From positions 420,001 through 452,000 of the forward strand of contig NZ_CP011034.1 of assembly GCF_001465295.1 (NCBI RefSeq): a stretch of 32,000 bases of DNA, written 5' to 3'. Every line of letters starts with the position of its first letter. The stretch's first letter is position 1. Source of the DNA: Pseudoalteromonas translucida KMM 520 (GTDB lineage: Bacteria > Pseudomonadota > Gammaproteobacteria > Enterobacterales > Alteromonadaceae). A program made the translations under genes and the position numbers. The notes under the pieces were generated by a model. The model made no database searches and had not been told where the DNA came from. It was given only the letters and a program-made list of their open reading frames with translations. This document shows positions 55-32,000 of this stretch, piece by piece.

Positions 55-1168
55 ATGGCTAATTTAATGAATACTCAGCCTAACAACAGCTCAAACACTC
101 AAAAGCAAGTAAGTAATACAACACAGCAAGCGCAAGAAATTGACTTAATGGCATTACTTGGTGCACTGCTCGATCGTAAGTATTTTATAGTGGCAGTTAC
201 TGCATTATTTATGCTAGTAGGTGTGGTTTATGCGGTTTTAAGCACACCTGTATACCAAGCAAGCGCAATGATACAGGTTGAGAATAGTAGTAGCTCTGTA
301 CCTGGTTTTGACGACATGGCCGGTATGTTCGAAAGTACCTCTGCTGCCGTTACAGAAATAGAACTATTAAAGTCGCGTAGTATCATAGGCGAAGCGGTAG
401 ATACGTTAAAACTAGATATAACTGCAGAGCCAAAGTTATTTCCATTAGTTGGTAGCCGTGCCTATCGTAAGTTTACGCCAATGGAGCAAGGCGATTTAGC
501 CGAGCCAAGCTTTGGTGCAGATAGCTATGCCTGGGGCGGCGAAAGCATTAGCGTATTTAGATTTGACGTACCTAGCCGAGCTATTAATCAAACATACACA
601 CTAGTAGCACAAGCCAATAACAGCGTTGCTTTATTAGATGGTGAAGGTGAGCAAATACTTAGTGGCAAAGTGGGAGATGAGCTAAGCAATGGTAAATTTA
701 ATTTAACCATACGTAGCTTAATTGCTCGCCCAGGTACTGAGTTTTTATTAAGCCGAAAAGATCGCCTAAATACTATTTTAGATTTACAAGCTGCTATCGG
801 CGCAAGCGAAAAAGGCAAAGACTCTGGCATAATTAATTTAAGCCTACAAAGTACTAAACCAAGCTACGCCGAAAAGGTACTAGATAAAGTCGCTGCTATT
901 TATGTACGCCGTAACGTAGAGCGAAATAGTGCTGAAGCTCAAAAGTCGCTAGAGTTCTTAGAAGTGCAACTGCCTGAAATTAAAAAACAACTTGAATTTG
1001 CAGAGCAGCGCTTTAACGACTACCAAATTAAACGCCAATCAATAAACATAACACTCGAAACCCAAGGCGTGCTTGAACAAGTAGTCGTGCTTGAAACTAA
1101 ATTACAAGAGCTAGAACTAAAGCGCCTAGAGATCAGTCGTAAATTTAAAAAAGACCACCCAACCTACC
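55..1168 (+). pseudogene. wzc: Wzc-type polysaccharide co-polymerase / tyrosine autokinase, N-terminal fragment (TM1 plus Wzz-like periplasmic domain). Interrupted by an IS at 1169; the open frame runs into the IS to 1185.
   Basis: TM helix KYFIVAVTALFMLVGVVYAVL is followed by a chain-length-determinant-like domain and a coiled coil (LEFLEVQLPEIKKQLEFAEQRFNDYQ). Removing 1169-2566 plus one TSD copy joins ..KKDHPTY to QGLVEQIAAV.. in frame, giving 2256 nt = 751 aa. Confidence 0.85.
1158..1168. repeat. Left copy of the 11-bp target-site duplication CCCAACCTACC flanking the IS4-family element
   Basis: An identical 11-mer sits at 2567-2577, immediately outside both terminal inverted repeats. Confidence 0.9.
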
Positions 1169-1185
1169 TAATGCCGATCAGTTAA
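1169..1185. repeat. IS4-family left terminal inverted repeat
   Basis: TAATGCCGATCAGTTAA compared with the reverse complement of 2550-2566, TAATGCCAGTCAGTTAA. Confidence 0.85.
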
Positions 1186-1224
1186 GGTTAATTGATCGGT
1201 TGACCGATCTAAATGATCGTGAAT

Positions 1225-1259
1225 AATCCGTAATTAGTTTCGCTAATTACGGATTTTTT
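1225..1259 (+). terminator. Strong hairpin plus T-run inside the IS left end, ending directly at the transposase ATG. Acts as an intrinsic terminator and/or translational occluder.
   Basis: AATCCGTAATTAG (1225-1237), loop TTTCG, CTAATTACGGATT (1243-1255): a perfect 13-bp stem. The T6 run at 1254-1259 is followed by ATG at 1260. Confidence 0.7.
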
Positions 1260-1961
1260 ATGGATATTCAAACAGCTCTTTCGACCACTTTCTCATCTGC
1301 CGAGGAATTTACAGCGCTTGATAACTTATCTGGCATATTAGATCCCGAATTACTTAACCAAGCTTTTGAAAAATCGGGGGTCGCCACCGTTCGTAAACGT
1401 CGTTTACCACTCGACGCTGTCGTTTGGTCTGTGATTGGTATGAGTTTATTTCGTCATGAATCTGTTTGGGATATAGCCTCTAAAATGGACATCGCCTTAC
1501 CAGGTAAAGGGAAACTAGTTGCCCCTAGTGCCATGGTTCAAGCGAGACAACGCTTAGGTGAAGGTGCTGTCGAGCAGGTCTTCAAGATGATGGCGTCACG
1601 GCATTATAATCATGCCCACTTTGATACATTTTGTGGCTTAAATCTATTAGCTGTTGATGGGGTTGTCTTTCGTACACATGATACGCCAGAGAATAAAGAC
1701 GTATTTGGATGTGGCTCAACCCAGTATGGTGAAAATACCTATCCGCAAATTCGGATGGTATGCCACATGGAGCTAACGAGTCATCAACTCATTAATTGTG
1801 CTTTTAACGGGCAGCATCAAGGGGAGATGACACTCGCTGAAGAACTCATTGAAGGCACACCGGATAACTCATTAACCTTATTTGATCGCGGTTATTATTC
1901 ATTAGGGCTTTTGCATCGTTGGCATCAAGCAGGGACTGAAAGACACTGGATGATACCATAA
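1260..1961 (+). pseudogene. IS4-family transposase, N-terminal part (frameshifted gene)
   Basis: IS4 N-terminal domain pattern ([38 protein letters not shown]). DDE residues lie in LLAVDGVVF and TLFDRGYYS. The frame ends at TAA 1959-1961 and the protein continues in another frame. Confidence 0.85.
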
Positions 1962-1966
1962 AGAAA

Positions 1967-2557
1967 ATGAGTAAAAATGACCAGTTAGTGCGTCTTAAAA
2001 CATCGCCACAAGCGCGAAAAAAGTTTACTGACTTGCCAGAGTTTATAGAAGCTCGGCTGCTTACCTACACGCATAATAATAAGCAGTATCAGATTCTTAC
2101 ATCAATGCTTGATGTAATGCGTTACCCATCAAAAGAAATAGCTGATTTGTACATGCATCGCTGGGAAATAGAAATAGGATATCGAGAAATAAAACAAACG
2201 ATGCTGCACTCAAACTATATCCTACGCTCAAAAAGGCCGGATATGATAAGGCAAGAATTGTGGGGGTTACTAATTGCCTACAATATTATAAGAATAGCCA
2301 TGCGTGAGGCGGCAGAGTTACTGGAAGTATGGCCAAATCAACTGAGTTTTTCTCATTGTTCAAGGCATATCAACGTATTTCTGTTAACTATCCCACTGAC
2401 AAGTCCGGGAAATTTACCAAAACACTATGAGCATTTATTAGAAACGCTGACGCTATTTCAGTTACCGACAAGGCGTCATGAGCGCAGCTTTCCACGATGT
2501 GTGAAAAAGAAACCATCTAAATATCCGTATAAAAAAAAGCCAGTCAGTGTTAACTGA
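1967..2557 (+). pseudogene. IS4-family transposase, C-terminal part (frameshifted gene)
   Basis: Carries the IS4 signature Y-x2-R-x3-E-x6-K region (HRWEIEIGYREIKQTM). This frame is open from 1940 and overlaps the end of the upstream frame. Confidence 0.85.
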
Positions 2558-2566
2558 CTGGCATTA
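2550..2566. repeat. IS4-family right terminal inverted repeat
   Basis: See the left IR. It is embedded in the palindrome GCCAGTCAG-TGTTAA-CTGACTGGC (2539-2562). Confidence 0.85.
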
Positions 2567-2577
2567 CCCAACCTACC
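2567..2577. repeat. Right copy of the 11-bp target-site duplication CCCAACCTACC
   Basis: Identical to 1158-1168. Confidence 0.9.
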
Positions 2578-3719
2578 AAGGTTTAGTTGAGCAAATAGCC
2601 GCAGTTAAAGAGCAGCGTAAAGCTTTAGTGGGCGAGGTAGGGAACCTACCTGAAACCCAACAAGAGTTGTTGCGTTTAAAGCGTGACGTAGAAGTAAGTA
2701 ATCAAATTTATACGCTACTACTAGGTAAAACCCAAGAGCTTGATATAGTCCGTGCGGGTACAGTCGGTAATGTACGTATTATTGACTACGCTGAGGTAAA
2801 TACCAGTAAACCAGTAAAACCTAAAAAAGCCTTGATAGTTGTAATGGCTACTATGCTAGGTGGTATGCTAGGTGTCGCTATTGTATTAGTACAAAAAGCT
2901 ATGCATAAAGGGGTGGAAGATCCAAGCGAAATTGAAGCACTAGGTATCCCTGTTTATGCCAGCGTACCGCACTCAGAGCATCAAGATAAACTTGCCGGCT
3001 TTAACAAAGGACGCAAGAGCAAGGCAGCGAAAGCTAAATCCATACTCGCAACAGACAATCCTGCAGATCTAGCGGTTGAGGCACTACGTAGCTTACGCAC
3101 AAGCTTGCACTTTGCGATGATGGAAGCTAAAAATAATGTTATTGCCATATCTGGGCCAAGTCCTGGTGTAGGTAAGTCGTTCATATCGGTTAACTTGGCA
3201 GTCGTATTAGCGCAAAGTGGTAAAAAAGTATTGATTGTAGATGCTGACATGCGTAAAGGTTACTTACAAACACAGTTCAATATAGAGGCAGCAGAAGGCT
3301 TAAGTGACTACCTATCGGGGCGTTTAAACCTAAGGCAAGTAACTAAAGCAACTAAAGTTGAAGGGTTAAGTGTAATTACTCGCGGGCAAATACCACCTAA
3401 CCCATCAGAATTATTAATGCACAGCAACTTTAGTAAGTTTATAGCAGAGCTAAGTACCGCTTACGATTTGGTCATTATAGATACACCGCCTATATTAGCG
3501 GTAACCGATCCCGCTATTGTAAGCGCCCATGCAGGTACTACGTTATTAGTAACCCGCTTTGGTCAAAACCATTTACGTGAAATAGAGCTAACCCGTAATC
3601 GCTTTGAGCAAAATGGCATAGATATAAAAGGCGTGGTATTTAACGGTGTACTTAAAAAAGCCAGCAACGCTTACGGATATTATGGTTACTATAATTATGA
3701 ATATAAAAGTGACGCATAA
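2567..3719 (+). pseudogene. wzc: Wzc tyrosine autokinase, C-terminal fragment (end of periplasmic coiled coil, TM2, BY-kinase domain, Tyr-rich tail). An in-frame GTG at 2547 inside the IS end could start an independent ORF 2547..3719.
   Basis: TM2 is ALIVVMATMLGGMLGVAIVLV. Walker A is GPSPGVGKS, Walker A' is VLIVDADMRKG and Walker B is DLVIIDTPP. The C-terminal tyrosine cluster is AYGYYGYYNYEY. Confidence 0.9.
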
Positions 3720-20863: not shown

Positions 20864-21734
20864 TTACTGCGTTGGAACAGCAAAAACCTCAGACTCATCG
20901 TTATCTAAATCAATAAACGCAATAGGCTGGTCACTCTGTATTGTGTTGGCGTAATTTTTAATAAACGGCACAACATATAACTGATTAAACCTATCGTCAC
21001 ACATAAACTCAGTAGGGTTTGTGCTTGTCAGCTTATACTCTTCTGTAATACTGTGCTGTAATAATAGCGGATTGTTTTCAGGCTTTTTAAGCCCACATTC
21101 TAATTGGCCTAATGCGCTATTCCCCCAGTTGCCGCTAAACGGTATAGGCGCTGAAACAAGCTCAATGTTCACATCGTTAGCAATAATGTTATGCTTGCGA
21201 CAATAATCGAGCTGACGGTTTATTACAGACTGCGTTAATTCATTTATCGTATACGTTTGTGTGTCGGCCCAATCAAAACGACTTATCCCAAACTTATAAA
21301 TAATCTCTCTCGTATTCGCAGTTGCAACAACGCCGCTCCATACATAAAAAATAATATGCGTGTGCGTAAACGGGCTATATGCATCCTCGCTTTTTCGCTG
21401 TTTTTCACATATCGGCAGTAACAGCGTAGGCTGCTCAACTCCCGGGTAATTTGAAAAATTCCTTACATAGTCAGTTTCCCCATTTGTGTATGTAATGCGA
21501 GTATGAATACGTTGCTTGCCTGTACTTTCTTTTTCACCACGTTCTACCTGTACTGACTTTATCGAGAGAGCTTTTAGCTTATTTGAAATTCGGTATAAAT
21601 CGTTAATAATTTTTATATCATTGCATACCATTTCACATACCCTGGCACCGTTTCGTCTTTGTCGTAATGCAGACAGCGTTGTGCGTGCTATGAAGTAATT
21701 GGCAATAACAATATCAATGATGTACTTATCTTTT
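20864..21734 (-). pseudogene. C-terminal fragment of a 551-aa protein of unknown function, split by IS66 (the six-frame ORF 20864..21763 borrows its start from inside the IS)
   Basis: Joins in frame to 24140..24932 once the IS and one TSD copy are removed (..NNFKQKD|KYIIDIVIANY..). 793 + 863 nt = 552 codons. Confidence 0.8.
21727..21734. repeat. Left copy of the 8-bp target-site duplication TATCTTTT of the IS66-family element
   Basis: An identical octamer lies at 24140-24147, directly outside the terminal repeats. Confidence 0.9.
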
Positions 21735-21814
21735 GTGAGCGTCCGGCAAATTGCGTCTGACAAATTAATCTCAACTTAAGTAAGTTACAACCAAACAATT
21801 ATTTGGAGTAACTT

Positions 21815-22114
21815 ATGAGAATTATGCGCAGCCCAGAGCAATGGCAAACCATCATCCATGAACAACAATCAAGTGGTTTAACCATCATTGATTATTGCCG
21901 GCAACATCAATTATCAATGACTAGCTTTTATGCGGTAAGAAAGAAACTCGGCCTATCATCGAATAATTTCGTTCGCGCCAAAATTACACAGCAAGTCGAA
22001 ATAGTTGATGAACAACCATCCATCACGTTAACTGTTGGCAAGGCAAACGTTAGTTTGCCAGCCACAACCTCTGCAACGTATTTAAGCCAGTTACTACGCG
22101 AGTTTGTTCAATGA
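21815..22114 (+). CDS. tnpA: IS66-family accessory protein TnpA (small HTH protein)
   Basis: 99 aa, the first ORF of the element. ATGA overlap with tnpB. Confidence 0.8.
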   Translation: MRIMRSPEQWQTIIHEQQSSGLTIIDYCRQHQLSMTSFYAVRKKLGLSSNNFVRAKITQQVEIVDEQPSITLTVGKANVSLPATTSATYLSQLLREFVQ

Positions 22115-22458
22115 AAATGTTTGTTGAGCCGTCAGAGGTTTTTCTGCATCGGGATTTTGTCGACTTTCGAAAAAGTATTAATGGCTTAGTGAGTATTGTT
22201 GAAGATGAGCTTGTTCGCGATGCCTATACCGGTACGTTGTTTGTATTTTGTAACAAGGCCAAAGATAAGCTGAAAATTCTATACTGGGATAAAACAGGGT
22301 TCGCGCTTTGGTATAAACGACTTGAAAAGCAAAAATTCAAATGGCCAAGTAAACTATCGAGCCAGGAATTTGAATTAACCTATCAACAACTGGATTGGTT
22401 GTTATCTGGATATGACGTGCTTGGCCATGAACCGCTGCACTATCAGTCACCGATCTAA
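22111..22458 (+). CDS. tnpB: IS66-family accessory protein TnpB (IS66 Orf2-like)
   Basis: 115 aa with the VDFRKSINGL..LFVFCNKAKDKLKILYWDKTGFALWYKRLEKQKF pattern typical of IS66 Orf2. Confidence 0.88.
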   Translation: MKMFVEPSEVFLHRDFVDFRKSINGLVSIVEDELVRDAYTGTLFVFCNKAKDKLKILYWDKTGFALWYKRLEKQKFKWPSKLSSQEFELTYQQLDWLLSGYDVLGHEPLHYQSPI

Positions 22459-22554
22459 CTAGATCTTTTATCAGTCAACGATCGTGTACGCAAGTCCTTA
22501 TTCTATTTGCGTTACAAAGCAGAATCATCTGTCTGTTCTTGCTAAACTCGATGG

Positions 22555-24117
22555 ATGAAAATTGATACTAACTCACTCCCTGACGACCCAGAACAACTCA
22601 AGCAAATGTTGCTTGAGTTGCAGGCTGAAACTACCCAAGAGTTAGCGAAAAAAGATAAAATCATCAGTGAACAAGCCATTCAAATTAATCAGTTTATTGA
22701 ACGCTATGAAATTGCCAAGCGTAAACAGTTTGGTAAAAGCTCCGAGCAACTCCCGGGGGCGGGGGAAACCTTCAATGAAGCGGAAGAAATCATTGATGAG
22801 GCCGATAAAACGTTATTAGCTGCGGCTGATAGTCACAGTAAGGTCACAATTAAAAACAAACCGACGCGCAAGCCACTGCCAAAAGAATTACCTCGAAAAG
22901 TGGTGACAATTGATTTGTCCATTGATGAAAAAGTGTGTGATTGTTGCCAAGGTAAGCTGCATAAAATTGGTGAAGCTCGTAGTGAAAAACTTGAGTTTGT
23001 TCCTGCGTACATCAAAGTGATAGAGACAGTTCGACCGAAATATGCCTGTAAAAGGTGTGAGCAAACTGGCACAGAAAATTCTATAAAAGTTGCACCTGTT
23101 CCAGCAACCCCCATTCCTAAAGGCATTGCCACCAGTAGTTTGCTGAGTCAAATCATCAGCGCCAAATATCAATATGGGTTGCCGCTATATAGGCAAGAAA
23201 AAATGTTCAATGAGTATGGTATTGAGCTGAGTCGTAAAACCATGTCAGATTGGATAATACGGTGTAGTGAATTACTGATGCCATTAGTTAACGAGCTAAA
23301 AGCAGCATTGCTTAGTCAAGCGGTGCTCCATGCCGACGAAACGCCCTTAAAGGTGATTAAGGCCGATAATAGCAGCAGTTACATGTGGGTGTATTGTTGT
23401 GGTAGCGATTCGGTGGCCGCCAATAGTTTGCCAAATATTATCCTCTATGATTATCACAACTCTCGTGCCGCAGCTTGTGTAGTTGATTACCTTGGTGACT
23501 ATGACGGTTACCTGCAAGTCGATGGTTATGCAGCGTACGGAAAAACAGATGCAATATTGGCAGGTTGTATGGCGCATGCACGTCGAAAATTCATTGATGC
23601 GAAAACGGTGCAAACGAAAAACAAAACCGGCAAAGCCGATGTTGCCTTAAGTCTTATTAGAAAACTCTACGGCATTGAGGCAAGCTTAAAAGACAAAACG
23701 GCCGCAGAAACGTATCAAGCACGGCAGGAAAGTTCAAAACCCATCATCGATAAACTTCACCATTGGATTATCGAAAATAAAGATAAAGTGCCACCGAAAA
23801 GTAAACTTGGTGAAGCGATTACGTATTGGTGTAACCAAGAACATAAGCTCATCACCTATTTAAAAGATGGTCGCATAAATATAGATAACAATCGCGCTGA
23901 GCGGGCTGTGAAACCGTTTGTGATTGGCAGAAAAAACTGGTTATTCTCCAATACCGCGCGGGGTGCAACGGCTAGCGCCGTGCTCTATAGTATTATTGAA
24001 ACCGCGAAAGCGAACGGACTGTTGGTCGACAACTATTTGCAAACCTGCCTAGATGAGCTTGCTAAAAAGCCTGAAAGTGTAGAGCACTTGCTACCTTGGA
24101 ATGTTAATCAAGGCTAG
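22555..24117 (+). CDS. tnpC: IS66-family DDE transposase TnpC
   Basis: 520 aa. N-terminal leucine-zipper region, zinc finger CDCCQGKLHKIG..YACKRCEQ, DDE core (HADETPLKV, LQVDGYAAY, NNRAERAVKPFVIGRKNWLF). Confidence 0.92.
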   Translation: MKIDTNSLPDDPEQLKQMLLELQAETTQELAKKDKIISEQAIQINQFIERYEIAKRKQFGKSSEQLPGAGETFNEAEEIIDEADKTLLAAADSHSKVTIKNKPTRKPLPKELPRKVVTIDLSIDEKVCDCCQGKLHKIGEARSEKLEFVPAYIKVIETVRPKYACKRCEQTGTENSIKVAPVPATPIPKGIATSSLLSQIISAKYQYGLPLYRQEKMFNEYGIELSRKTMSDWIIRCSELLMPLVNELKAALLSQAVLHADETPLKVIKADNSSSYMWVYCCGSDSVAANSLPNIILYDYHNSRAAACVVDYLGDYDGYLQVDGYAAYGKTDAILAGCMAHARRKFIDAKTVQTKNKTGKADVALSLIRKLYGIEASLKDKTAAETYQARQESSKPIIDKLHHWIIENKDKVPPKSKLGEAITYWCNQEHKLITYLKDGRINIDNNRAERAVKPFVIGRKNWLFSNTARGATASAVLYSIIETAKANGLLVDNYLQTCLDELAKKPESVEHLLPWNVNQG

Positions 24118-24139
24118 ACGCATTTGCTCAGACGCTTAC

Positions 24140-24147
24140 TATCTTTT
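24140..24147. repeat. Right copy of the 8-bp target-site duplication TATCTTTT
   Basis: Identical to 21727-21734. Confidence 0.9.
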
Positions 24148-24932
24148 TGTTTAAAGTTATTTTTTAAGTCGGGACGTTGATGCTCTGGAAAATAAGCTGA
24201 TGTGTATACTTTTATGTCGGTGACACTCGCTGCGTCACTAAATCGTTGAAGCTCTTGGTACACACTTGCTTTAAATGTCTCTACTTTTTCTGGTGTGTTC
24301 ATGTCTTCAAGGTCATAAGACACCGCCTGTATACTTTTAGCATAATAGAGTAATTTACTGCGCGTCTCGGTTATACGCTTTTCAACTTTATTTCTTGCCT
24401 CTAAAAATTCAGCGCTCAGGGTATAGCGATAGTCGCGCTTTGAGTAAATGTAATTAACCTCAACATTTAACGATAATAAGTTTTTGTCAGTGGCTCTTCT
24501 ATCGGTGAGTATGTTATCCAACTCGCGTTGTAACTCTGTTTTAATTTGTTTTGCACCGAGTGTTTTTTGCTTTTTAAAGGCACACGCGCATAAAGTGACC
24601 TTGCATTCTTTAGAAATATACTGAGATAAATAGCTCAACATGCGCCGACGCGGCTTTGATGGCTTTGTGGTATACCCTAAAAATTGTGTAATGTGTTTTT
24701 GACACGCCCGCTTATGGCTAGAGGCAGAGTAAGGAATGGTGCTTTCGTACTGTTTAAACAAACCAATAATAGGTTGAAATATCATTTTGTTAGTAAATTC
24801 ATCATACCATTGGCTTTTGTTGAGCTGCTTTAATGGCATACTCATGAGCTTATCGAACGCATCTTGAGCCACTTCTAGCTCTTCAGGTAATGGGTATGGC
24901 ATTGTATTGTTTGTGCATTGTTTGCAAATCAT
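24140..24932 (-). pseudogene. N-terminal fragment of the 551-aa unknown protein split by IS66 (the six-frame ORF 24114..24932 reads into the IS end)
   Basis: See 20864..21734. The Cys-rich N-terminus is MICKQCTNN. I recognise no family. Confidence 0.8.
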
Positions 24933-25063
24933 AAATAACCTCTTTTTAGGTTAGCATTAAATTAAATGCGCATAGGCGCGATATAAGTATTAAATGTTAT
25001 AGGTGTGGCATGCGCTTGTTTGGCGTTAACCAACTAAACGCATAGCCATTAAATGTGTGTGCT

Positions 25064-26230
25064 TTATGCAATCCCGCGTTCAATCATCATTTCATTAAAT
25101 GCAAAACCATCCTGCCGTGAGGCATTAGCAACATACGGCGCGTACACGTCAAATAATAAACGCGTGTCGCTGTGGCCTAACATGTGCGAAATGTACAGTG
25201 GGTTTTCATGCGCAGCGATATGCAGAACGGCTGCGGTGTGGCGTGTTTCGTAAGGGCGGCGGCGTGCAAGCCCCGCTTTTTGGAGTATGGGATACCAAAG
25301 CTGCTTACTTATAAAGTGGGTATCCAGCGGTTTATTTTTATGCGTAAATACAAATTCACTGTTTGCTTGTTCTTGTAAGCGCTTAAACAATGTAAATAAT
25401 GTATCGCACATTTTTAAGTCGCGGCGCGACTTAGGTGTTTTTACATCACCCAACTCACCATTAACCCAATTGTGTCGAATACGAATGAGCCGATGATTAA
25501 AGTCGATATCTTCCCAGCGAAGACCATGTATTTCACAGCTTCGCATACCAGTCCAAAAACGCACTGTAAAATAATCGCGCCACTCATCGGATGTGCATTC
25601 TAAAAAGCGTTGTACTTCATCGGCAATAAGTGGCAATGAGTTAGCGCGTTCTTCTTTTAGGGTTTTATAGCGGCGTAATGGGTAGGGAAAGCTGTGCTCT
25701 TCTGCGGCTAAACTTAGTATGGCAACAAACGGCCAAAGAATGCCATTAATACGCTTATTAGAAAGCTTACGGGCCCCTTTGGTATCGCAAACCATTAAGC
25801 TTTCTCGAAAATAATCCACATTAGCCAGCTTGATCTCGTTTACTAATATATTGCCAAATTCAGGGATGAGGTAACGGTCGAGCGTATTACGTACCACGCT
25901 TTGATAACTGCTTTTCCATTTTGCTTTTTGACGATCGAACCATTCATTCGCGTAATCGTTAAAGAATGGATAAAGACGATCGGGGTGTTTTTCGCGTTGT
26001 AGCGCCTCAAACTTAGCGACTTTTTTACTTTCAGGAAAATAATCACGATACTGAAACGTATCTAAGTCAATTTCAGCATTAATTTTTTTAAGTGTTGCGT
26101 TGGCTTTTTTAAGGTTTACAGGGGTCGCCATGAGCTTAGTGCCTTCACGAAAGCGCTGCCCATAAATGTGTAAGTCAAATTGGATACGCCCATTGGGGCG
26201 AATGCGAATGTGAGCCATAATGGCCTCCAT
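25064..26230 (-). CDS. int: Tyrosine-type site-specific integrase with N-terminal arm-binding (DUF3596-like) domain. The true start is probably the ATG at 26218.
   Basis: AHIRIRPNGRIQFDLHIYGQRFREGT arm-domain pattern. Catalytic residues: R in FWTGMRSCEI, K in KTPKSRRDL, R-H in YETRHTAA, and H plus Y in MLGHSDTRLLFDVYAPY. GGAGG lies 5 nt upstream of the ATG at 26218. Confidence 0.9.
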   Translation of the reverse strand: MEAIMAHIRIRPNGRIQFDLHIYGQRFREGTKLMATPVNLKKANATLKKINAEIDLDTFQYRDYFPESKKVAKFEALQREKHPDRLYPFFNDYANEWFDRQKAKWKSSYQSVVRNTLDRYLIPEFGNILVNEIKLANVDYFRESLMVCDTKGARKLSNKRINGILWPFVAILSLAAEEHSFPYPLRRYKTLKEERANSLPLIADEVQRFLECTSDEWRDYFTVRFWTGMRSCEIHGLRWEDIDFNHRLIRIRHNWVNGELGDVKTPKSRRDLKMCDTLFTLFKRLQEQANSEFVFTHKNKPLDTHFISKQLWYPILQKAGLARRRPYETRHTAAVLHIAAHENPLYISHMLGHSDTRLLFDVYAPYVANASRQDGFAFNEMMIERGIA

Positions 26231-26237
26231 CAGTTAA

Positions 26238-26358
26238 TGGATCTATAAATAGATCTATCCCTCACCGATGGAATTCGTTAGAATTGGATCATCGGCTGGG
26301 TCGCGTTTAAACATGGTGCAGCCGGTACGGGGTAGGGAGGTTGCCGCCTCTTTACCCC
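26238..26358. other. GC-rich, hairpin-dense non-coding segment immediately upstream of int (candidate att/regulatory site or structured RNA)
   Basis: Palindrome GATCTA-TAAA-TAGATC at 26240-26255. Hairpin CCGATG..CATCGG at 26265-26295, enclosing the direct repeat GAATT-N5-GAATT. A 30-nt hairpin GGGGTAGGGAGG-TTGCCG-CCTCTTTACCCC at 26329-26358. Confidence 0.4.
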
Positions 26359-26689
26359 AACTGCTTATAAGATACTAACTCGCAATAATACGTAATCAAT
26401 CTGAAGTATTAAACCTGACGCTAACAGCGTTAAAAATTTCTGATTTAGAACCACTAAATAACGAAATTTTTGCCTTGTTTTCGACCCGGTTTTCTTGCTT
26501 CAAAATAGCTTACTTAATTAAGCGACTTGGTATTATTCCCAATCGTGCTATGCCGTAATGCTTTTACGCTTTAGGCATTAAATTCACAATTGTTCAAAAT
26601 TTCACTATTTAATATAGCAAGTGCTGTCTATTTGTCCAGTGTTTTGTTGTTTTTAATATTCCTCCTTTTTACCCTCTACCCACTCGGGA

Positions 26690-27991
26690 TCAAACATCAA
26701 GCTCCCCTTGTGCTCCTTGAGGTTTGTGTTCATTTTTATCTGTATCGGATGGTTGTTCAAGTTGTGATGGCTTATAATCCTTGTGTAACGCTAAAACTTC
26801 TTTAAGCCGACTGTCATCCCTTTCAACAGAGAGTACACTGAGTGGCACAGTACTTTTTAAACATTTAAAAATCTCTAGAAGTAGTTGTCCAACCCGGTTT
26901 TCAGTGACCTGAAAGAACATTTCTTCTATTTCTTTTGCACTTTTAAGTTTTAGATCTTTAAAGTCTTTTACTGTAAAGCGAAATACGTACTCCTTTGCTT
27001 TTTCAATCTTATCAATACTAAAAATAGTTAAAGGTCGTGTGAAATTCTCTCCTTCGTTATTTAGGTCCCCATCGTCACCTATATTGTTGATAGATACTAG
27101 GCTTTCACTAATGTATAAGTGTCCAGAATTTATTGATTTATAGGATTTTTTACAATTTAGCACTTCCATATTCAATGCGAAAAAGTCTATTTTTCCTTTA
27201 ATAATGACATTTGCTAGCATTTTCTTTTTCTTTCTAAACTCCTCAATACCCGCTAACGGGCATGTGATAGATATATCAGAGCCTTGCAAAAGGAGATCAT
27301 TACCTCGCTGTAAAAAGTGAATGCATCGGTCTGTGTTTTGGTCGAGCATCTGTTTTATGTCCTCTACCGCTAATTCATTTAATATTAAAGGGACTGTTAA
27401 TTTAATGTTTTCATCTACTGTTACCTGTGACACATGACCGTTTATTTGAATAAAAATAGCTTTATTTACTGGGTCAAATTCAATAAAGTCAAAGCTGTCA
27501 TATTTACTTGCTAAAAAAACAACCATTTCAAAAGTAGCCTTTGATATTGGATCCCCTTCAATTTTTTGATGCTCATCTAGGTATTTTAAATGAGTTTTTT
27601 GGCCCTCAGTGCATTTATAGCTTTTAAAGCCCGGGAGCTGTGGATGGTTTTTACTCGTTCTAATAGTATGATCAGTAACACCTAATTTAATGAGCCCCTT
27701 TTCTTGCGTAATAGATAAAACTGGGCTTTTTAAGAGATATAAAGGCAGCTGAATCAAAAATTCGGCATTGACGGAAAAAGAACAATCTTTGTGCTGTCCT
27801 GAGATTTTGTTAAGGTTTAAGTTACATGTATACCAGTACGGTTCTTCCCCTGCTATAAGGGTTAGTTGTTTTGTCTTTTTATCAATGAAACCTGTCACAT
27901 TTTTACATTTGTTCTTATTTTTTGAACTAGATATGGATTTAGTGAATCCTTTTAACTTACGTATTTCTTTGTCTGTAAAGTAAGCGTCCAT
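26690..27991 (-). CDS. Unknown 433-aa protein with apparent three-domain DnaN (beta sliding clamp)-like pattern and an acidic/disordered C-terminal tail. Third gene of the recombinase operon.
   Basis: Strong SD (GGAGG at 28001-27997, 5-nt spacer) overlapping the upstream stop codon. By-eye alignment to E. coli DnaN in all three domains is given in the findings. No family assignment was possible without a search. Confidence 0.45.
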   Translation of the reverse strand: MDAYFTDKEIRKLKGFTKSISSSKNKNKCKNVTGFIDKKTKQLTLIAGEEPYWYTCNLNLNKISGQHKDCSFSVNAEFLIQLPLYLLKSPVLSITQEKGLIKLGVTDHTIRTSKNHPQLPGFKSYKCTEGQKTHLKYLDEHQKIEGDPISKATFEMVVFLASKYDSFDFIEFDPVNKAIFIQINGHVSQVTVDENIKLTVPLILNELAVEDIKQMLDQNTDRCIHFLQRGNDLLLQGSDISITCPLAGIEEFRKKKKMLANVIIKGKIDFFALNMEVLNCKKSYKSINSGHLYISESLVSINNIGDDGDLNNEGENFTRPLTIFSIDKIEKAKEYVFRFTVKDFKDLKLKSAKEIEEMFFQVTENRVGQLLLEIFKCLKSTVPLSVLSVERDDSRLKEVLALHKDYKPSQLEQPSDTDKNEHKPQGAQGELDV

Positions 27992-28001
27992 GACGACCTC
28001 C

Positions 28002-29798
28002 CTAATGTTTAATTAATTTAATAAACTGTTCTACATATTCAAGTGTATGGATAGATATTTTGCTCTTTGGCTTTAGGTAAATAGTCAATGAACTTGGCCC
28101 TTTTTGCTGACGTAAAACGTTGATATGTTTGTATTCACTTTTCTTTGCATAACGCTTTTTAACCATTTCTAACGGTCGCTTACTGTCTACTTTTCTATTT
28201 ATGTGAAGCTCAAATTCACATCGCACCCATGCCCACTCTGTATGTCTAAATACAGTATTAAACGCAGACGCACCTTTGGTGGTACAGGCAATATTTAAAC
28301 GTAATGCGTGTTTGTGTTTACACACTGTTATGTTGGGGAATGATTTATATGCTGTTAGATATTTATTATTGATAGGCTGAGAGCGGTGACGACACCCACA
28401 TTCCCAAATAGCACTGATAGACTCAAAGTTAATTATTGCTTCTTCACCATTAGGAACAGGGTTTATTAGCTTATCAAAAAGAAAGTTAGTCAGTGTTAAC
28501 TGGCTCTTTTCAAGCGTACTCAACCACTTTTCTTCCAAGTATGTATTGCTTAGTGTGTCAGTTATATGCTCCTTTTGTGCGGCTTGGCTTAAATTATCTA
28601 TCTGTAACACATGTACCCTTAGTGCGTGTTCAGTTACTGTTATTGATTGACATCGTTTTTCAGCAAGTGTTTGCTGATCATAATCAGGAATAATATGGCT
28701 TAGTAGTCTAGATAAATCATTAGATGACGCACTTAGCCCCATCAGGTAGCGTAACGCAGAGTGTGAAAACTGCTTGTGAGTATGAGGATTATGATATTTA
28801 CTTATTATTGGTAAAAGCCAATCGATATCATGTAGGTAAGACCACCGTGTAGTTGCATAAAAAATATGGCCAATTTGTTTTCCCATATTATCTAAAAAAG
28901 CAGCACTATTAACCTCAATTGCCTCTCTGCCTTTGAACCAATAATCTAATCGAACGGCCACTGACTTTTCTGATAGCACTTCCTGCTCAAGAGGTGTTTC
29001 CCCGCGCAAATTGTCGGGCGTATAGCTAACGCAATGTAACATTTGCAGCATAAATATATGCACACCGCTGTGACGTAAATGGTGAAAGTTAAAGTGAATA
29101 CCAAATAATATTCGTAATGCCCTCGATACGGGTACTAAATAGGATATAGCGCGAGAGGATAGTGTCTCAAGATCATGACCTATAAGTGGTAAATCTTGAT
29201 TACTATGTTTTTTAATATCAAGCAGGGTATAAAAAAAATAGCGGTATCGTGTGGGTATCGTTGTATAAACCATACGGGAGGAGCCACTTTTTGTTTTACC
29301 TTCACGGGTGTTGGTAATATTGAGTGTTAAAAGCCCCGTCTCACTTTTAAATTGAATATCTTTAATGCGTAATCTAAGTACTTCACCACGGCGCAACATA
29401 GCGTAAAAACCGAGCAAAGCAGCAACAATACAAAATAAAATGTGTAATGTGGGTTTTGTTGCTCCATTATCGATAAGTGCATTTATAAGCGAGTCACATT
29501 TATCTACACATAAGCGGGCTGCGCTAACAGAAGGGGGAATTATTGGTGTGCTAAAATTAGATAAATCCAGAGCTTCGGTTTTCTCTTGCCAGCTTAAAAA
29601 CGCTAAAAATTTATAAAAGGCTTTTTTTACTGCATCAGACTTAATTGAAACAAAAATAACCTGTGCCCACTCATTAATCGACTCCTCAATGAGTGCATCA
29701 GTTAAAGTCAGAGGAAAGGGAGTTAGTATCTTTGTGAGTGACGTATATGTTCTAATAGTTCCCTTCTTAAGGGCTGCTTTTTTAGGGCCGTATATGTT
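28002..29798 (-). pseudogene. C-terminal two-thirds of a ~950-aa giant tyrosine recombinase (core-binding region, catalytic domain, ~250-aa C-terminal extension). It is separated from its N-terminal part by a frameshifting 47-bp duplication.
   Basis: I translated this frame codon by codon and it is open from 29798 to 28002, with no start codon before the TTG at 29417. Catalytic set: R in MLRRGEVLRL, K in EGKTKSGSS, HHLRHSG, and GH..TTRWSYLH. Confidence 0.8.
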
Positions 29799-30901
29799 CT
29801 AATAGTTCCCTTCTTAAGGGCTGCTTTTTTAGGGCCGCCATTAATTATCCAATCTTTTGCGAAGTCAAACATCAAGCGTGGCAAAATATTATCAGTATCC
29901 CAGGGAGGGGGTTCTATTTCATTTACCTCATTTATGTCGACAGCTCTAAGTAACTTTCCATGTTGCCATGGGTTCTTAGGCCTATGTGTTGATAATGGCG
30001 TAAACAACGTCGTATCCTGATTATTCTTGTAAATATCAGCTAATTTTTGTTTGCAGACATCATCGTCAGTTATTAGCCCCACATGACGTTCAGGTTGAGC
30101 TAAATCTTTAATAAAAACAGGATTTATTTCATACTGGTTATACCAATGAATTTGAAATAGTCTCGACCATTGTGTTTTTGCTATGTGTTGAATGCCATTT
30201 GTATCCAGCCAGTCCTTAAGCTCTTTTACTAAAGACGCTGTTGTGGTTAACTTAGCGCGTTGTGCATAGTAATCACGCAGTAAGTTTTGATTTAAGAGTG
30301 ATAAAGAGTAATGAGTAGGAAAATGGGGGATATCTGTATTTTTATACTGGTGTTTAACGCGCAGTCTAGGATAAGGGCATTCATTAGTTATCGATTGGGA
30401 GTCATTTAAAATAGTTGATATATCGCCAAGCGATAAAGGCGCTATCTCAAAGCCAATCATAATCACCATAAAAGCAGTGCCGAGCTCACGCTGCTCATAA
30501 AAATTTTCGAGGTCTATTTGGTAGCATGAGAACACACGATGTGATAGCCCAGCTTCGTTTGCTATACTTTCAAACCACTCATGATCTGCGTCAGTAAGTA
30601 AGGATTTAACAAGTTCAGAGCCATCCTGAGACTCAGGCAACTGCCACTGGCATGCATAACGTAAATAATAAAGAATGTTTTGCAAAGCTTTAGTGTAGTG
30701 TACTCGCTTACCTGTTGGCACAGTTGCTATTATTCTTTGTGCTTTCTTTATTTCTTTTTCTTTTAATGAACGTGTTTGCTGCTGCATTACCGGCCATTTA
30801 GTTAAAAGTTCAGCAATAACTTGTGTATCAGCACACGGCTGTGCCGTTTTACTTAGGTAGTCTTGAATATCTGTTGCATGTATCAATGCGGGGTTAGACA
30901 T
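29723..30901 (-). pseudogene. N-terminal third of the giant tyrosine recombinase (unknown N-terminal domain), terminated prematurely after the 47-bp duplication
   Basis: The peptide GPKKAALKKGTIRTYT is encoded twice, at the end of this ORF and at the head of the downstream open frame. Deleting one 47-bp copy fuses both into 2853 nt = 950 aa. The ATG at 30901 overlaps the upstream gene by 8 nt. Confidence 0.8.
29743..29836. repeat. Perfect 2 x 47-bp tandem duplication (GTATATGTTCTAATAGTTCCCTTCTTAAGGGCTGCTTTTTTAGGGCC)
   Basis: Copy 1 is 29743-29789 and copy 2 is 29790-29836, with no mismatches. 47 is not a multiple of 3. Confidence 0.95.
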
Positions 30902-32000
30902 AATGTAACTCCTTAACGCCGATATGTTGGTCTAGCCCGTTTAAGTAAGCTTTTAGAACGCCAATATTTTTTGGGAACATAATGTCGCTACCTAAATGTT
31001 CTCCTGTATTTTCATGGCCCATTAGGCGATCAATATCTTGAGCCGTAAGTGGGGTAAGACTAATAATTGTATGAGCACATTGAGCAAAATAGTGCCTGAG
31101 CTGATAAGGAACAACACCAGCCCAGTGTTTGTTCATAAATACACGTAATGCACGAGCACTTAATGGTGTTGGAGTTTCTGACTTATCATAAATGTACCAA
31201 AGCTCAGGTAAATCATCATGTAAGCTTAGTTGGGAATGAAGTGATGCTTTTAGCTCAGTGTAATGCGTAATTTCTCTAAGCAGGTAATCACTTAAAATAA
31301 CTTGCCTTAAGTGGCCTTTATCTTTGACAAACGTAACGTGAGTGAATGAAAAATAATGAGAGAGCAAACTAATACTGTGAGTTGGCCTTACTCCTGTTAA
31401 TACAATAAACAGCAATGCTATGCGAAAGCTGACAGCATTAAAGTAGGCTAACCACTGCGCACGTGAAGCTCTACTGGTTGGTTTTAGTTGTTTAACATAA
31501 CTATCAATACGATTAAAAAAGTCAGTGACGTCTTTATCTTTAGGAACACGGCGACTACCGAGCATAATTGCAGGCGCTGCAACATGATCACTCTTTCCTT
31601 TTGTTTTAATGATTTTATATTGACCCATACTCCCTTTATGTTTCAGATCTGGATCAATATTTTCGTAAGGCGTATCTCTTAGGCGCTCAGTAATAAGGTT
31701 AACCGTTTTACTTTCGAGATGAACTTTGAAATACGAATGCAAATTCTCTTTTCGTATGAATTCAAATAAAAAGCCGATATATCTGTGATGGGCATCAAAA
31801 ATTTTAAATCTCAGACGGTCGCTGCTGAGCCGTTGATAGCATATAGCGCTAGTATGGTGTGCTTTAACTGATTTTACTAAATGCTTTCTTGGGATAGGGG
31901 TCAAGGTTTCGTCTGCGCGAGCACATAACGATATATAACGATAAAAGGTATTTTTTCTCGCCGGTTTAAAAGTTTTGAGTACTAGTGGCCTCGTCCAGTG
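30894..32000 (-). CDS. Tyrosine-recombinase-like protein, first visible gene of the operon. Partial: the frame stays open to the window edge, so the TTG at 31904 is probably not the real start.
   Basis: R in LTGVRPTHSISL, K-hairpin in VKDKGHLRQVIL, LRHYFAQ and LMGHENTGEH. I translated upstream of 31904 and found no stop through position 32000 (..HWTRPLVLKTFKPARKNTFYRYISLCARADET-LTPIPRK..). Confidence 0.7.
   Translation of the reverse strand, partial: HWTRPLVLKTFKPARKNTFYRYISLCARADETLTPIPRKHLVKSVKAHHTSAICYQRLSSDRLRFKIFDAHHRYIGFLFEFIRKENLHSYFKVHLESKTVNLITERLRDTPYENIDPDLKHKGSMGQYKIIKTKGKSDHVAAPAIMLGSRRVPKDKDVTDFFNRIDSYVKQLKPTSRASRAQWLAYFNAVSFRIALLFIVLTGVRPTHSISLLSHYFSFTHVTFVKDKGHLRQVILSDYLLREITHYTELKASLHSQLSLHDDLPELWYIYDKSETPTPLSARALRVFMNKHWAGVVPYQLRHYFAQCAHTIISLTPLTAQDIDRLMGHENTGEHLGSDIMFPKNIGVLKAYLNGLDQHIGVKELHYV

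Follow-up and report, generated by a model that had tools for sequence, protein, structure and literature searches.

A 47-bp tandem duplication interrupts the gene of a large predicted tyrosine recombinase in Pseudoalteromonas translucida KMM 520

A perfect tandem duplication of 47 bp was found inside the gene of a 950-amino acid (aa) protein, a predicted tyrosine recombinase, in a 32,000-nt stretch of Pseudoalteromonas translucida KMM 520 (NZ_CP011034.1, positions 420,001-452,000). This stretch is called the window below, and all positions are window coordinates. The gene belongs to a colinear module of five genes, and the duplication leaves two open reading frames (ORFs) where relatives have one. 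We consider it likely that this is an ordinary and recent inactivating mutation, reversible in principle and probably immobilising the element that carries the gene, and not an evolved switch.

The duplication and its effect on the reading frame

Tandem Repeats Finder reported an array of 2.0 copies at 29742..29837 with a period of 47 and a score of 192, free of indels and with 100% matches; no other array in the window has a period >14. An exact string comparison (w[s..s+46] == w[s+47..s+93]) succeeded at s = 29742, 29743, and 29744 only. Because the 47-mers are identical at three start positions, 29743-29789 followed by 29790-29836 is one valid phasing, and a 2-bp microhomology, CG in the coding orientation, bounds the unit and flanks the copies. 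Random sequence of 32 kb would contain about 32000 x 4^-47 perfect tandem matches of 47 bp, which excludes chance. A preliminary description of this DNA had placed a perfect, directly adjacent duplication at 29743-29836, and both tests bear this out.

The two copies and the additional CG lie on the minus strand inside the recombinase gene, at codons 356-371 (GPKKAALKKGTIRTYT). The 5' part of the broken gene (29723..30901, minus strand) encodes a 392-aa product that consists of native residues 1-371 and a 21-aa out-of-frame tail, and the 3' part (28002..29798, minus strand) is an open frame of 598 codons that covers residues 356-950. In the 392-aa ORF the first copy in coding orientation is read as GPKKAALKKGTIRTYT, residues 356-371, and the second copy is read out of frame as ALKKQPLRRELLEHIRHSQRY and followed by a stop. 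Since 47 is not a multiple of 3, the native frame is lost after residue 371 and a stop follows 21 codons on. The downstream frame, open from 29798 to 28002, starts ...GPKKAALKKGTIRTYTSLTK. This codon layout agrees with the earlier observation that the same 16-aa peptide is encoded in both frames. Removal of either copy in silico gave one 950-aa ORF with no scar, as had been predicted, and both the length and the full alignment of this ORF match the homologues described below.

The segment 29418-29722 had been recognised as open in the recombinase frame despite its non-coding appearance, and this proved correct. It seems non-coding because it contains no ATG, GTG, or TTG, so that the ORF list starts at 29417, the earliest possible start codon. 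The deposited halves of the gene are 392 aa and 465 aa long, and both come from one 3,390,388-bp contig (NCBI/UniRef). The 392-aa product contains neither the core-binding nor the catalytic domain; the deposited 465-aa ORF begins within the catalytic domain and does not include the core-binding domain.

Homologues are unbroken and carry the unit once

A search with the repaired 950-aa sequence against a collection of 5.8 billion proteins returned 48 matches, and the product of the window itself falls in the top cluster. The 47 homologue clusters come from Pseudoalteromonas, Vibrio, Shewanella, and Psychromonas and contain either unbroken proteins of ~900-980 aa or fragments truncated by contig ends; none of the 47 is split at the duplication site. 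The nearest homologues are 95% identical (950 aa) and 83% identical (949 aa). A 68-member cluster at the 90% level consists mostly of 950-aa proteins with names from Pseudoalteromonas nigrifaciens and relatives. An alignment of 18 sequences is continuous across the duplication site, with G355 and Y370 invariant.

At the DNA level, the 47-bp unit is present as a single copy in eleven related assemblies with 95-98% identity to the window, among them the loci L001, L002, L023-L026, L029, and L030. When the single-copy arrangement was used as a search pattern, the window's exact unit sequence was recovered once each in two metagenome contigs (L031 and L032), and the duplication junction had no match in metagenome contigs. 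The single-copy state in relatives indicates that the duplication is derived and lineage-specific, and the identity of the two copies indicates that it is recent, as judged from these sequence comparisons. The comparison of orthologues suggested in the preliminary description turned up single-copy relatives, and homologues arranged as two genes with the same junction were not found among the 47 clusters. The word 'recent' in that description also fits the data, namely the identical copies, the single copy in related assemblies, and the absence of the junction from the metagenome collection.

The divergence of the window from its closest relatives is not uniform, with 4-5 mismatches per 100 bp between 31900 and 29400 versus 0-1 below ~29300. 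This drop at ~29300-29400 indicates a mosaic, recombined allele. We considered whether the duplication sits at a recombination breakpoint between diverged alleles and rejected this idea, as the mismatch density shifts at ~29300-29400, ~400 bp off. One of the related loci, L002, is from a metagenome-assembled genome (MAG) labelled Cognaticolwellia sp. and is 96-97% identical to the Pseudoalteromonas module, which could reflect a recent inter-genus transfer or a mis-binned contig.

The 950-aa protein is a predicted tyrosine recombinase

In the 18-sequence alignment, whose members share 30-95% identity, the residues R488 (in an RxxE motif), K522, H591-x-x-R594, H663, and Y673 of the repaired protein are invariant, as is Y666. 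The protein therefore contains the complete tyrosine recombinase catalytic set R...K...HxxR...H/W...Y. Pfam Phage_integrase matched residues 479-596 below its threshold (20.7 bits, E 3.7e-4). The AlphaFold model of the 950-aa protein has a mean predicted local distance difference test score (pLDDT) of 73.6, and its best Foldseek matches in the PDB are XerH, XerA, Cre/Tre, and IntI, all with a probability of 1.00 and E-values of 8e-5 to 1e-3 over ~350 aligned central columns. From the conserved active-site residues and the modelled fold, with its core-binding and catalytic domains, the protein is predicted to be a tyrosine recombinase. The parts specific to this family are ~355 N-terminal and ~250 C-terminal residues.

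The duplication site corresponds to the linker and the first helix of the core-binding domain (helix residues 364-371 in the AlphaFold model). The core-binding domain, the catalytic domain with every active-site residue, and the C-terminal domain all lie downstream of residue 371. Because everything for DNA binding and catalysis is located downstream of the frameshift, the allele should be null or a very strong hypomorph. The sequence and the model together predict that the duplicated allele is null or nearly so, subject to the caveat of a slight leak that is described next.

A slippery heptamer in the shifted frame

The shifted frame reads part of the second copy as GCC CTA AAA AAG, so that the heptamer A_AAA_AAG, of the dnaX type, comes to lie in phase with the shifted upstream frame (29777..29783, minus strand; from the codon table and a phase calculation). 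A -1 slip at this heptamer would move ribosomes into the downstream open frame (29798 to 28002) and would yield a predicted 966-aa protein with a 16-aa insertion. The site at 29783..29777 thus has the X_XXY_YYZ pattern of programmed -1 frameshifting in phase, together with a productive -1 frame. Few heptamers shift as readily in E. coli as A_AA.A_AA.G, at which frameshifting reaches ~0.3% when stimulators are absent and tens of percent when they are present (PMC4066793). With respect to stimulatory elements, no Shine-Dalgarno (SD)-like sequence was found in the 25 nt upstream of the heptamer, and the sole structure downstream is a 5-bp hairpin (CCCTT-AAG-AAGGG, -5.0 kcal/mol) at a distance of 3 nt, compared with 5-9 nt for programmed sites. 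We rejected this hairpin as a frameshift stimulator because it is too weak and too close. The likeness to a dnaX-type site therefore extends to the heptamer itself, its phase, and the productive -1 frame; the site differs in being an accidental product of the duplication and in having neither the upstream SD-like element nor the strong downstream stem-loop that stimulate frameshifting in dnaX and insertion sequence (IS) elements.

The allele could accordingly be described as leaky and not OFF, with a fraction of ribosomes slipping by -1 to produce a 966-aa recombinase with 16 aa inserted where the core-binding domain begins. The phase of the heptamer, the open frame entered by the shift, and the shift-prone nature of the sequence in E. 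coli all speak for this possibility, but only basal slippage would be expected from a site with no upstream SD-like element and a weak 5-bp hairpin. In addition, with the insertion the core-binding domain would contain its first helix (residues 364-371) twice, a change of uncertain tolerance, and the frameshift efficiencies are values for E. coli and not for this host. We regard a leaky allele as possible but doubtful; it is compatible with an inactivating mutation and alters only the degree of loss. From the sequence, the allele may be very slightly leaky.

The five-gene recombinase module

The broken gene belongs to a colinear block of five genes encoding proteins of ~160, 521, 950, 433, and 388 aa in this order, which tblastn synteny identified in the window and in 20 loci of six genera; the window ends inside the 521-aa gene. 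The hosts are Pseudoalteromonas, the Cognaticolwellia-labelled MAG, Vibrio (including V. cholerae BI-5D), Shewanella, Psychromonas, and Tolumonas, such that the module ranges over marine Alteromonadales, Vibrionales, and Aeromonadales.

The upstream neighbour of the recombinase gene encodes the 521-aa protein (30894..32000, minus strand, with the C-terminal ~367 codons in the window), with an 8-bp overlap between its stop and the recombinase start. Alignments of this protein revealed the motifs TGxRPTH, DKGxxR, PYxLRH, and IDRLMGH with conserved R, K, (Y)xxR, and H residues, and no conserved nucleophile tyrosine after the GH. Its AlphaFold model (pLDDT 85.5, predicted template modelling score 0.81) gave Foldseek matches to XerA, XerH, bacterial topoisomerase IB, and lambda integrase, and no match to the sequence was found in Pfam, NCBIfam, or the PDB. 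Based on the Foldseek matches and the missing tyrosine, for the 521-aa protein we predict a tyrosine recombinase/topoisomerase IB fold that has no nucleophile.

The downstream neighbour encodes the 433-aa protein (26690..27991, minus strand), which always follows the recombinase gene in relatives with 21-27% identity across genera (tblastn synteny) and which has no match in Pfam, NCBIfam, PADLOC, or the PDB. The 160-aa protein has no match in Pfam or NCBIfam, and a sequence search of the family profiles against the PDB returned nothing. The last gene of the module encodes a 388-aa tyrosine integrase (25064..26230, minus strand) with the Pfam domains Arm-DNA-bind_2, Phage_int_M, and Phage_integrase. 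This integrase shares 68-85% aa identity across genera (the window and L003-L020), compared with 21-60% for the other four proteins; the asymmetry could mean that the target site is conserved or that the evolutionary histories differ. An anti-phage defence system was considered and rejected, as PADLOC had no match for the 950-, 521-, 157-, and 388-aa proteins and gave only fragments with E > 0.003 for the others.

Between pairs of related loci, the shared blocks begin ~200 bp upstream of the 160-aa gene and end 5-75 bp, or one gene, beyond the integrase stop, and the flanks differ. These pairwise comparisons found no conserved terminal repeats of an element. Against plasmids, a megablast search with 24000-32000 gave only a 140-bp match to IS66, and tblastn of the 950- and 521-aa proteins against 72,556 plasmids retrieved only one degraded copy, on pSA70-4 of Shewanella putrefaciens (L022, CP078041.1). 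On this small non-mobilisable plasmid, decayed 521-aa and 950-aa genes with 24-33% identity are annotated as short hypothetical ORFs, which implies that the module has reached plasmids. Two other loci have unusual layouts. A 12.6-kb contig of a Psychromonas MAG (L020) begins in the middle of the large recombinase gene and, after ~5 kb of other genes, ends in a second pair of 160-aa and 521-aa genes, so that the contig is either circularly permuted or carries tandem modules. In L014, a 3' integrase fragment with its flank (1896-3300) is 99% identical to L019 and is located ~6 kb upstream of the module of L014 itself. These layouts hint at tandem or circular forms.

Other disruptions of the region and of the recombinase gene

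The window contains two further genes broken by IS elements. An IS66-family element (21735-24139), which encodes a tnpB-like protein of 115 aa and a transposase of 520 aa, is flanked by an 8-bp target duplication (TATCTTTT, 21727-21734 and 24140-24147). It splits the homologue of a 554-558-aa gene that follows the integrase in relatives (20864..24932, minus strand) into ORFs of 272 aa and 299 aa, and L023 has the uninterrupted version of the insertion site. In addition, the wzc gene, of the Wzc-type tyrosine kinase/chain-length kind, is split over 55-3719 into a part with the Wzz and WZC_N domains (55-1185) and a part with the GNVR and P-loop domains (2547-3719). The cause is an IS4-family element with an 11-bp direct repeat (CCCAACCTACC, 1158-1168 and 2567-2577), whose own transposase is in two ORFs in different frames (1260-1961 and 1967-2557). 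The two insertions show that gene breakage is common here, and the duplication fits this pattern of decay. The segment 4000-11000 has a G+C content of 29-31% compared with ~37-43% elsewhere and encodes a glycosyltransferase, a TupA-like ATP-grasp protein, a Wzy polymerase, a Wzx-type flippase, and an asparagine-synthase-like protein; it looks like the horizontally exchanged, serotype-specific core of a polysaccharide cluster.

The recombinase gene is also broken in a sister strain. In Pseudoalteromonas sp. APM04 (L029, CP094441.1, 6392-10885), the orthologous gene is irreversibly cut by an IS3-family element with a 515-aa transposase, which leaves ORFs of 645 aa and 294 aa. The C-terminal part is 98.6% identical, and the 47-bp unit is single. 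This independent breakage hints that hosts repeatedly immobilise the element.

Comparison with known recombinase systems

The module was compared with three kinds of elements that use several tyrosine recombinases. In the family of strand-biased circularizing integrative elements (SE), Tfp and Srap are the family markers, and the core operon intA-tfp-intB-srap is found at the left end (PMC10214605). SE elements have imperfect terminal inverted repeats of 13-19 bp and a 6-bp spacer, and they undergo attL x attR recombination without formation of an empty site (PMC10214605). Knock-outs of intA, intB, and srap abolish this recombination; tfp could not be deleted (PMC10214605). The module and SE share a host range of Vibrionales, Alteromonadales, and Aeromonadales, an operon in which an ordinary tyrosine recombinase and a large, fully catalytic one are encoded together with a recombinase-fold protein without the catalytic tyrosine and an accessory protein of ~160 aa, and genes that overlap or are closely spaced, suggestive of translational coupling (PMC10214605). 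They differ in the number of conserved genes (five in the module, four in SE) and in their order, which is 160-521-950-433-388 aa in the module, with the ordinary integrase last, and intA-tfp-intB-srap in SE. The large recombinase of the module is 925-980 aa long compared with 671 aa for IntB of SE-Pda04Ya311, and the ordinary integrase of the module differs by its arm-binding domain. Comparison with the proteins of SE-Pda04Ya311 extracted from pAQU1 (IntA, 545 aa; Tfp, 614 aa; IntB, 671 aa; Srap, 161 aa) gave only BLASTP E-values > 0.5, and hhalign of family profiles gave probabilities < 6%. Membership of the SE family was rejected, as the order of the core operon is not matched and no homology to the family markers Tfp and Srap was detected, with hhalign probabilities < 3% in this test.

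GInt elements carry a ginABCD operon of three integrase-like genes and a small helix-loop-helix gene at the 5' end, followed by cargo and an AT-rich 3' end (PMC5385486). All four gin genes are needed for excision and integration (PMC5385486). As in the module, three recombinase-fold proteins and one or more accessory proteins are encoded in one operon, and one of the three does not have part of the catalytic set. Gene number (five in the module) and order differ, in a comparison that was made with the published description of GInt. In the third system, Tn554 (tnpA, tnpB, tnpC), a small accessory protein likewise accompanies two tyrosine recombinases, one ordinary and one large (summary in PMC10214605). 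Tn554 differs in that it is found in Firmicutes (Staphylococcus/Enterococcus), has three genes, and has no recombinase-fold protein without a nucleophile; the plasmid tblastn search with the 950- and 521-aa proteins detected no sequence similarity to Tn554. By these comparisons, the module appears to resemble GInt, SE, and Tn554 elements in its logic, but it has neither the gene order nor the sequences of SE.

For the duplication itself, the closest parallel is the tetA assay with 101-bp repeats (Lovett and colleagues, as used in PMC7145654). In that assay an internal tandem duplication is also null and the precise deletion of one copy restores function, and the loss of short adjacent repeats is RecA-independent (PMC7145654). 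The repeat described here differs in that it is natural, chromosomal, and 47 bp instead of 101 bp long.

Discussion

In the account that we favour, the 47-bp duplication would have arisen spontaneously by replication slippage or template switching, of which the 2-bp microhomology is the usual signature. With the frame lost after residue 371, the product has no core-binding, catalytic, or C-terminal domain, and the allele should be null or a very strong hypomorph. By analogy with GInt and SE, in which attL x attR recombination, and in GInt integration as well, depends on each recombinase-operon gene amenable to knock-out, the frameshift probably immobilises the element. The gene would be restored if one copy were lost precisely, and since deletion between close direct repeats of <200 bp is RecA-independent (PMC7145654), exact reversal is plausible. 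The duplication is best seen as one of several independent hits on the region and on the recombinase gene. Several points weigh against this account. The duplication rests on one deposited assembly. The role of the recombinase in excision and integration is assigned by analogy, for an element whose ends lie partly outside the window. The in-phase A_AAA_AAG in the shifted frame may allow a small amount of full-length protein with 16 additional aa to be made, and the lesion could be complemented in trans if another, intact module were present elsewhere in the genome.

That the duplication is seen in one assembly only, with both halves (P0049 and P0057) taken from one 3.39-Mb contig, also bears on whether it is real. 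An assembly or finishing error could have joined two contigs with a 47-base overlap that was left untrimmed, or polishing could have made the repeat, in which case the real gene would be an intact 950-aa ORF. The perfect and exactly adjacent copies and the absence of the junction elsewhere would be expected from such an error, and 47 is an odd number, as k-mer sizes in de Bruijn assembly would be. Contigs normally end at repeats, however, and the site lies in unique sequence with the closest IS element 5.6 kb away. A single 3.39-Mb contig would be typical of a long-read assembly, in which k-mer overlaps do not arise. The 2-bp microhomology fits real slippage, although its chance expectation is 1/16, and the other disruptions in the window are clearly real and have target-site duplications, so that gene breakage is common here. 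We therefore consider an artefact rather unlikely. The two ORFs could also be the natural state, that is, separate abutting genes, and NCBI does annotate two proteins of 392 and 465 aa. This explanation has a negligible probability and is refuted by the homologue clusters, the alignment, and the codon layout: no cluster is split at the site and the aligned homologues run through it unbroken, the 21-aa tail of the 392-aa product has no counterpart in any homologue, the downstream frame contains no start codon for 127 codons, and the junction is a perfect 47-bp duplicate.

The preliminary description had called the duplication a potentially reversible OFF switch. Reversal by loss of a copy is plausible (PMC7145654), but a switch is unsupported, and the IS insertion in APM04 and the two IS-disrupted genes of the window fit plain decay. 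If gain and loss of a copy toggled the element between locked and mobile states in a population, short direct repeats that collapse by RecA-independent slippage or template switching when adjacent (PMC7145654) and an exact, scar-free restoration would suit the purpose, and the hairpin in the window-specific variant of the unit (CCCTT-AAG-AAGGG, -5.0 kcal/mol) could favour slippage. A phase-variable switch would be recognised by the presence of both states in populations or isolates. The eleven related assemblies and two scans of metagenome collections show the single-copy state only, the duplicated state was seen in this window alone, and no recurrence of the duplication at the site was found. 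Moreover, beyond the 2-bp microhomology the ancestral sequence offers no repeat by which the duplication would form frequently, and the sister strain APM04 lost its recombinase gene to an IS element and not by a toggle. An evolved or exploited switch is thus highly improbable. A broader proposal is that the module is an undescribed family of multi-recombinase integrative elements, related in logic, though not recognisably in sequence, to SE, GInt, and Tn554, in which the duplication acts as a revertible lock, with copy loss and ~0.3% -1 frameshifting keeping a trickle of activity and allowing re-arming; we regard this combination as a long shot. A full-text search of the literature found no description of the five-gene module.

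As an ordinary inactivating mutation, the duplication is itself unexceptional, and its value lies in providing a clean, natural, and scar-free null allele in an uncharacterised recombinase module. For annotation, the two ORFs now labelled 'hypothetical' or 'integrase' should be joined and marked as a single frameshifted pseudogene. Of greater interest than the mutation is the five-gene module that it would disable, with three predicted tyrosine recombinase-fold proteins, one of them without the nucleophile, and two unknown proteins. If the module is a mobile element, the broken and repaired alleles would be a ready pair for testing what the 950-aa recombinase does.

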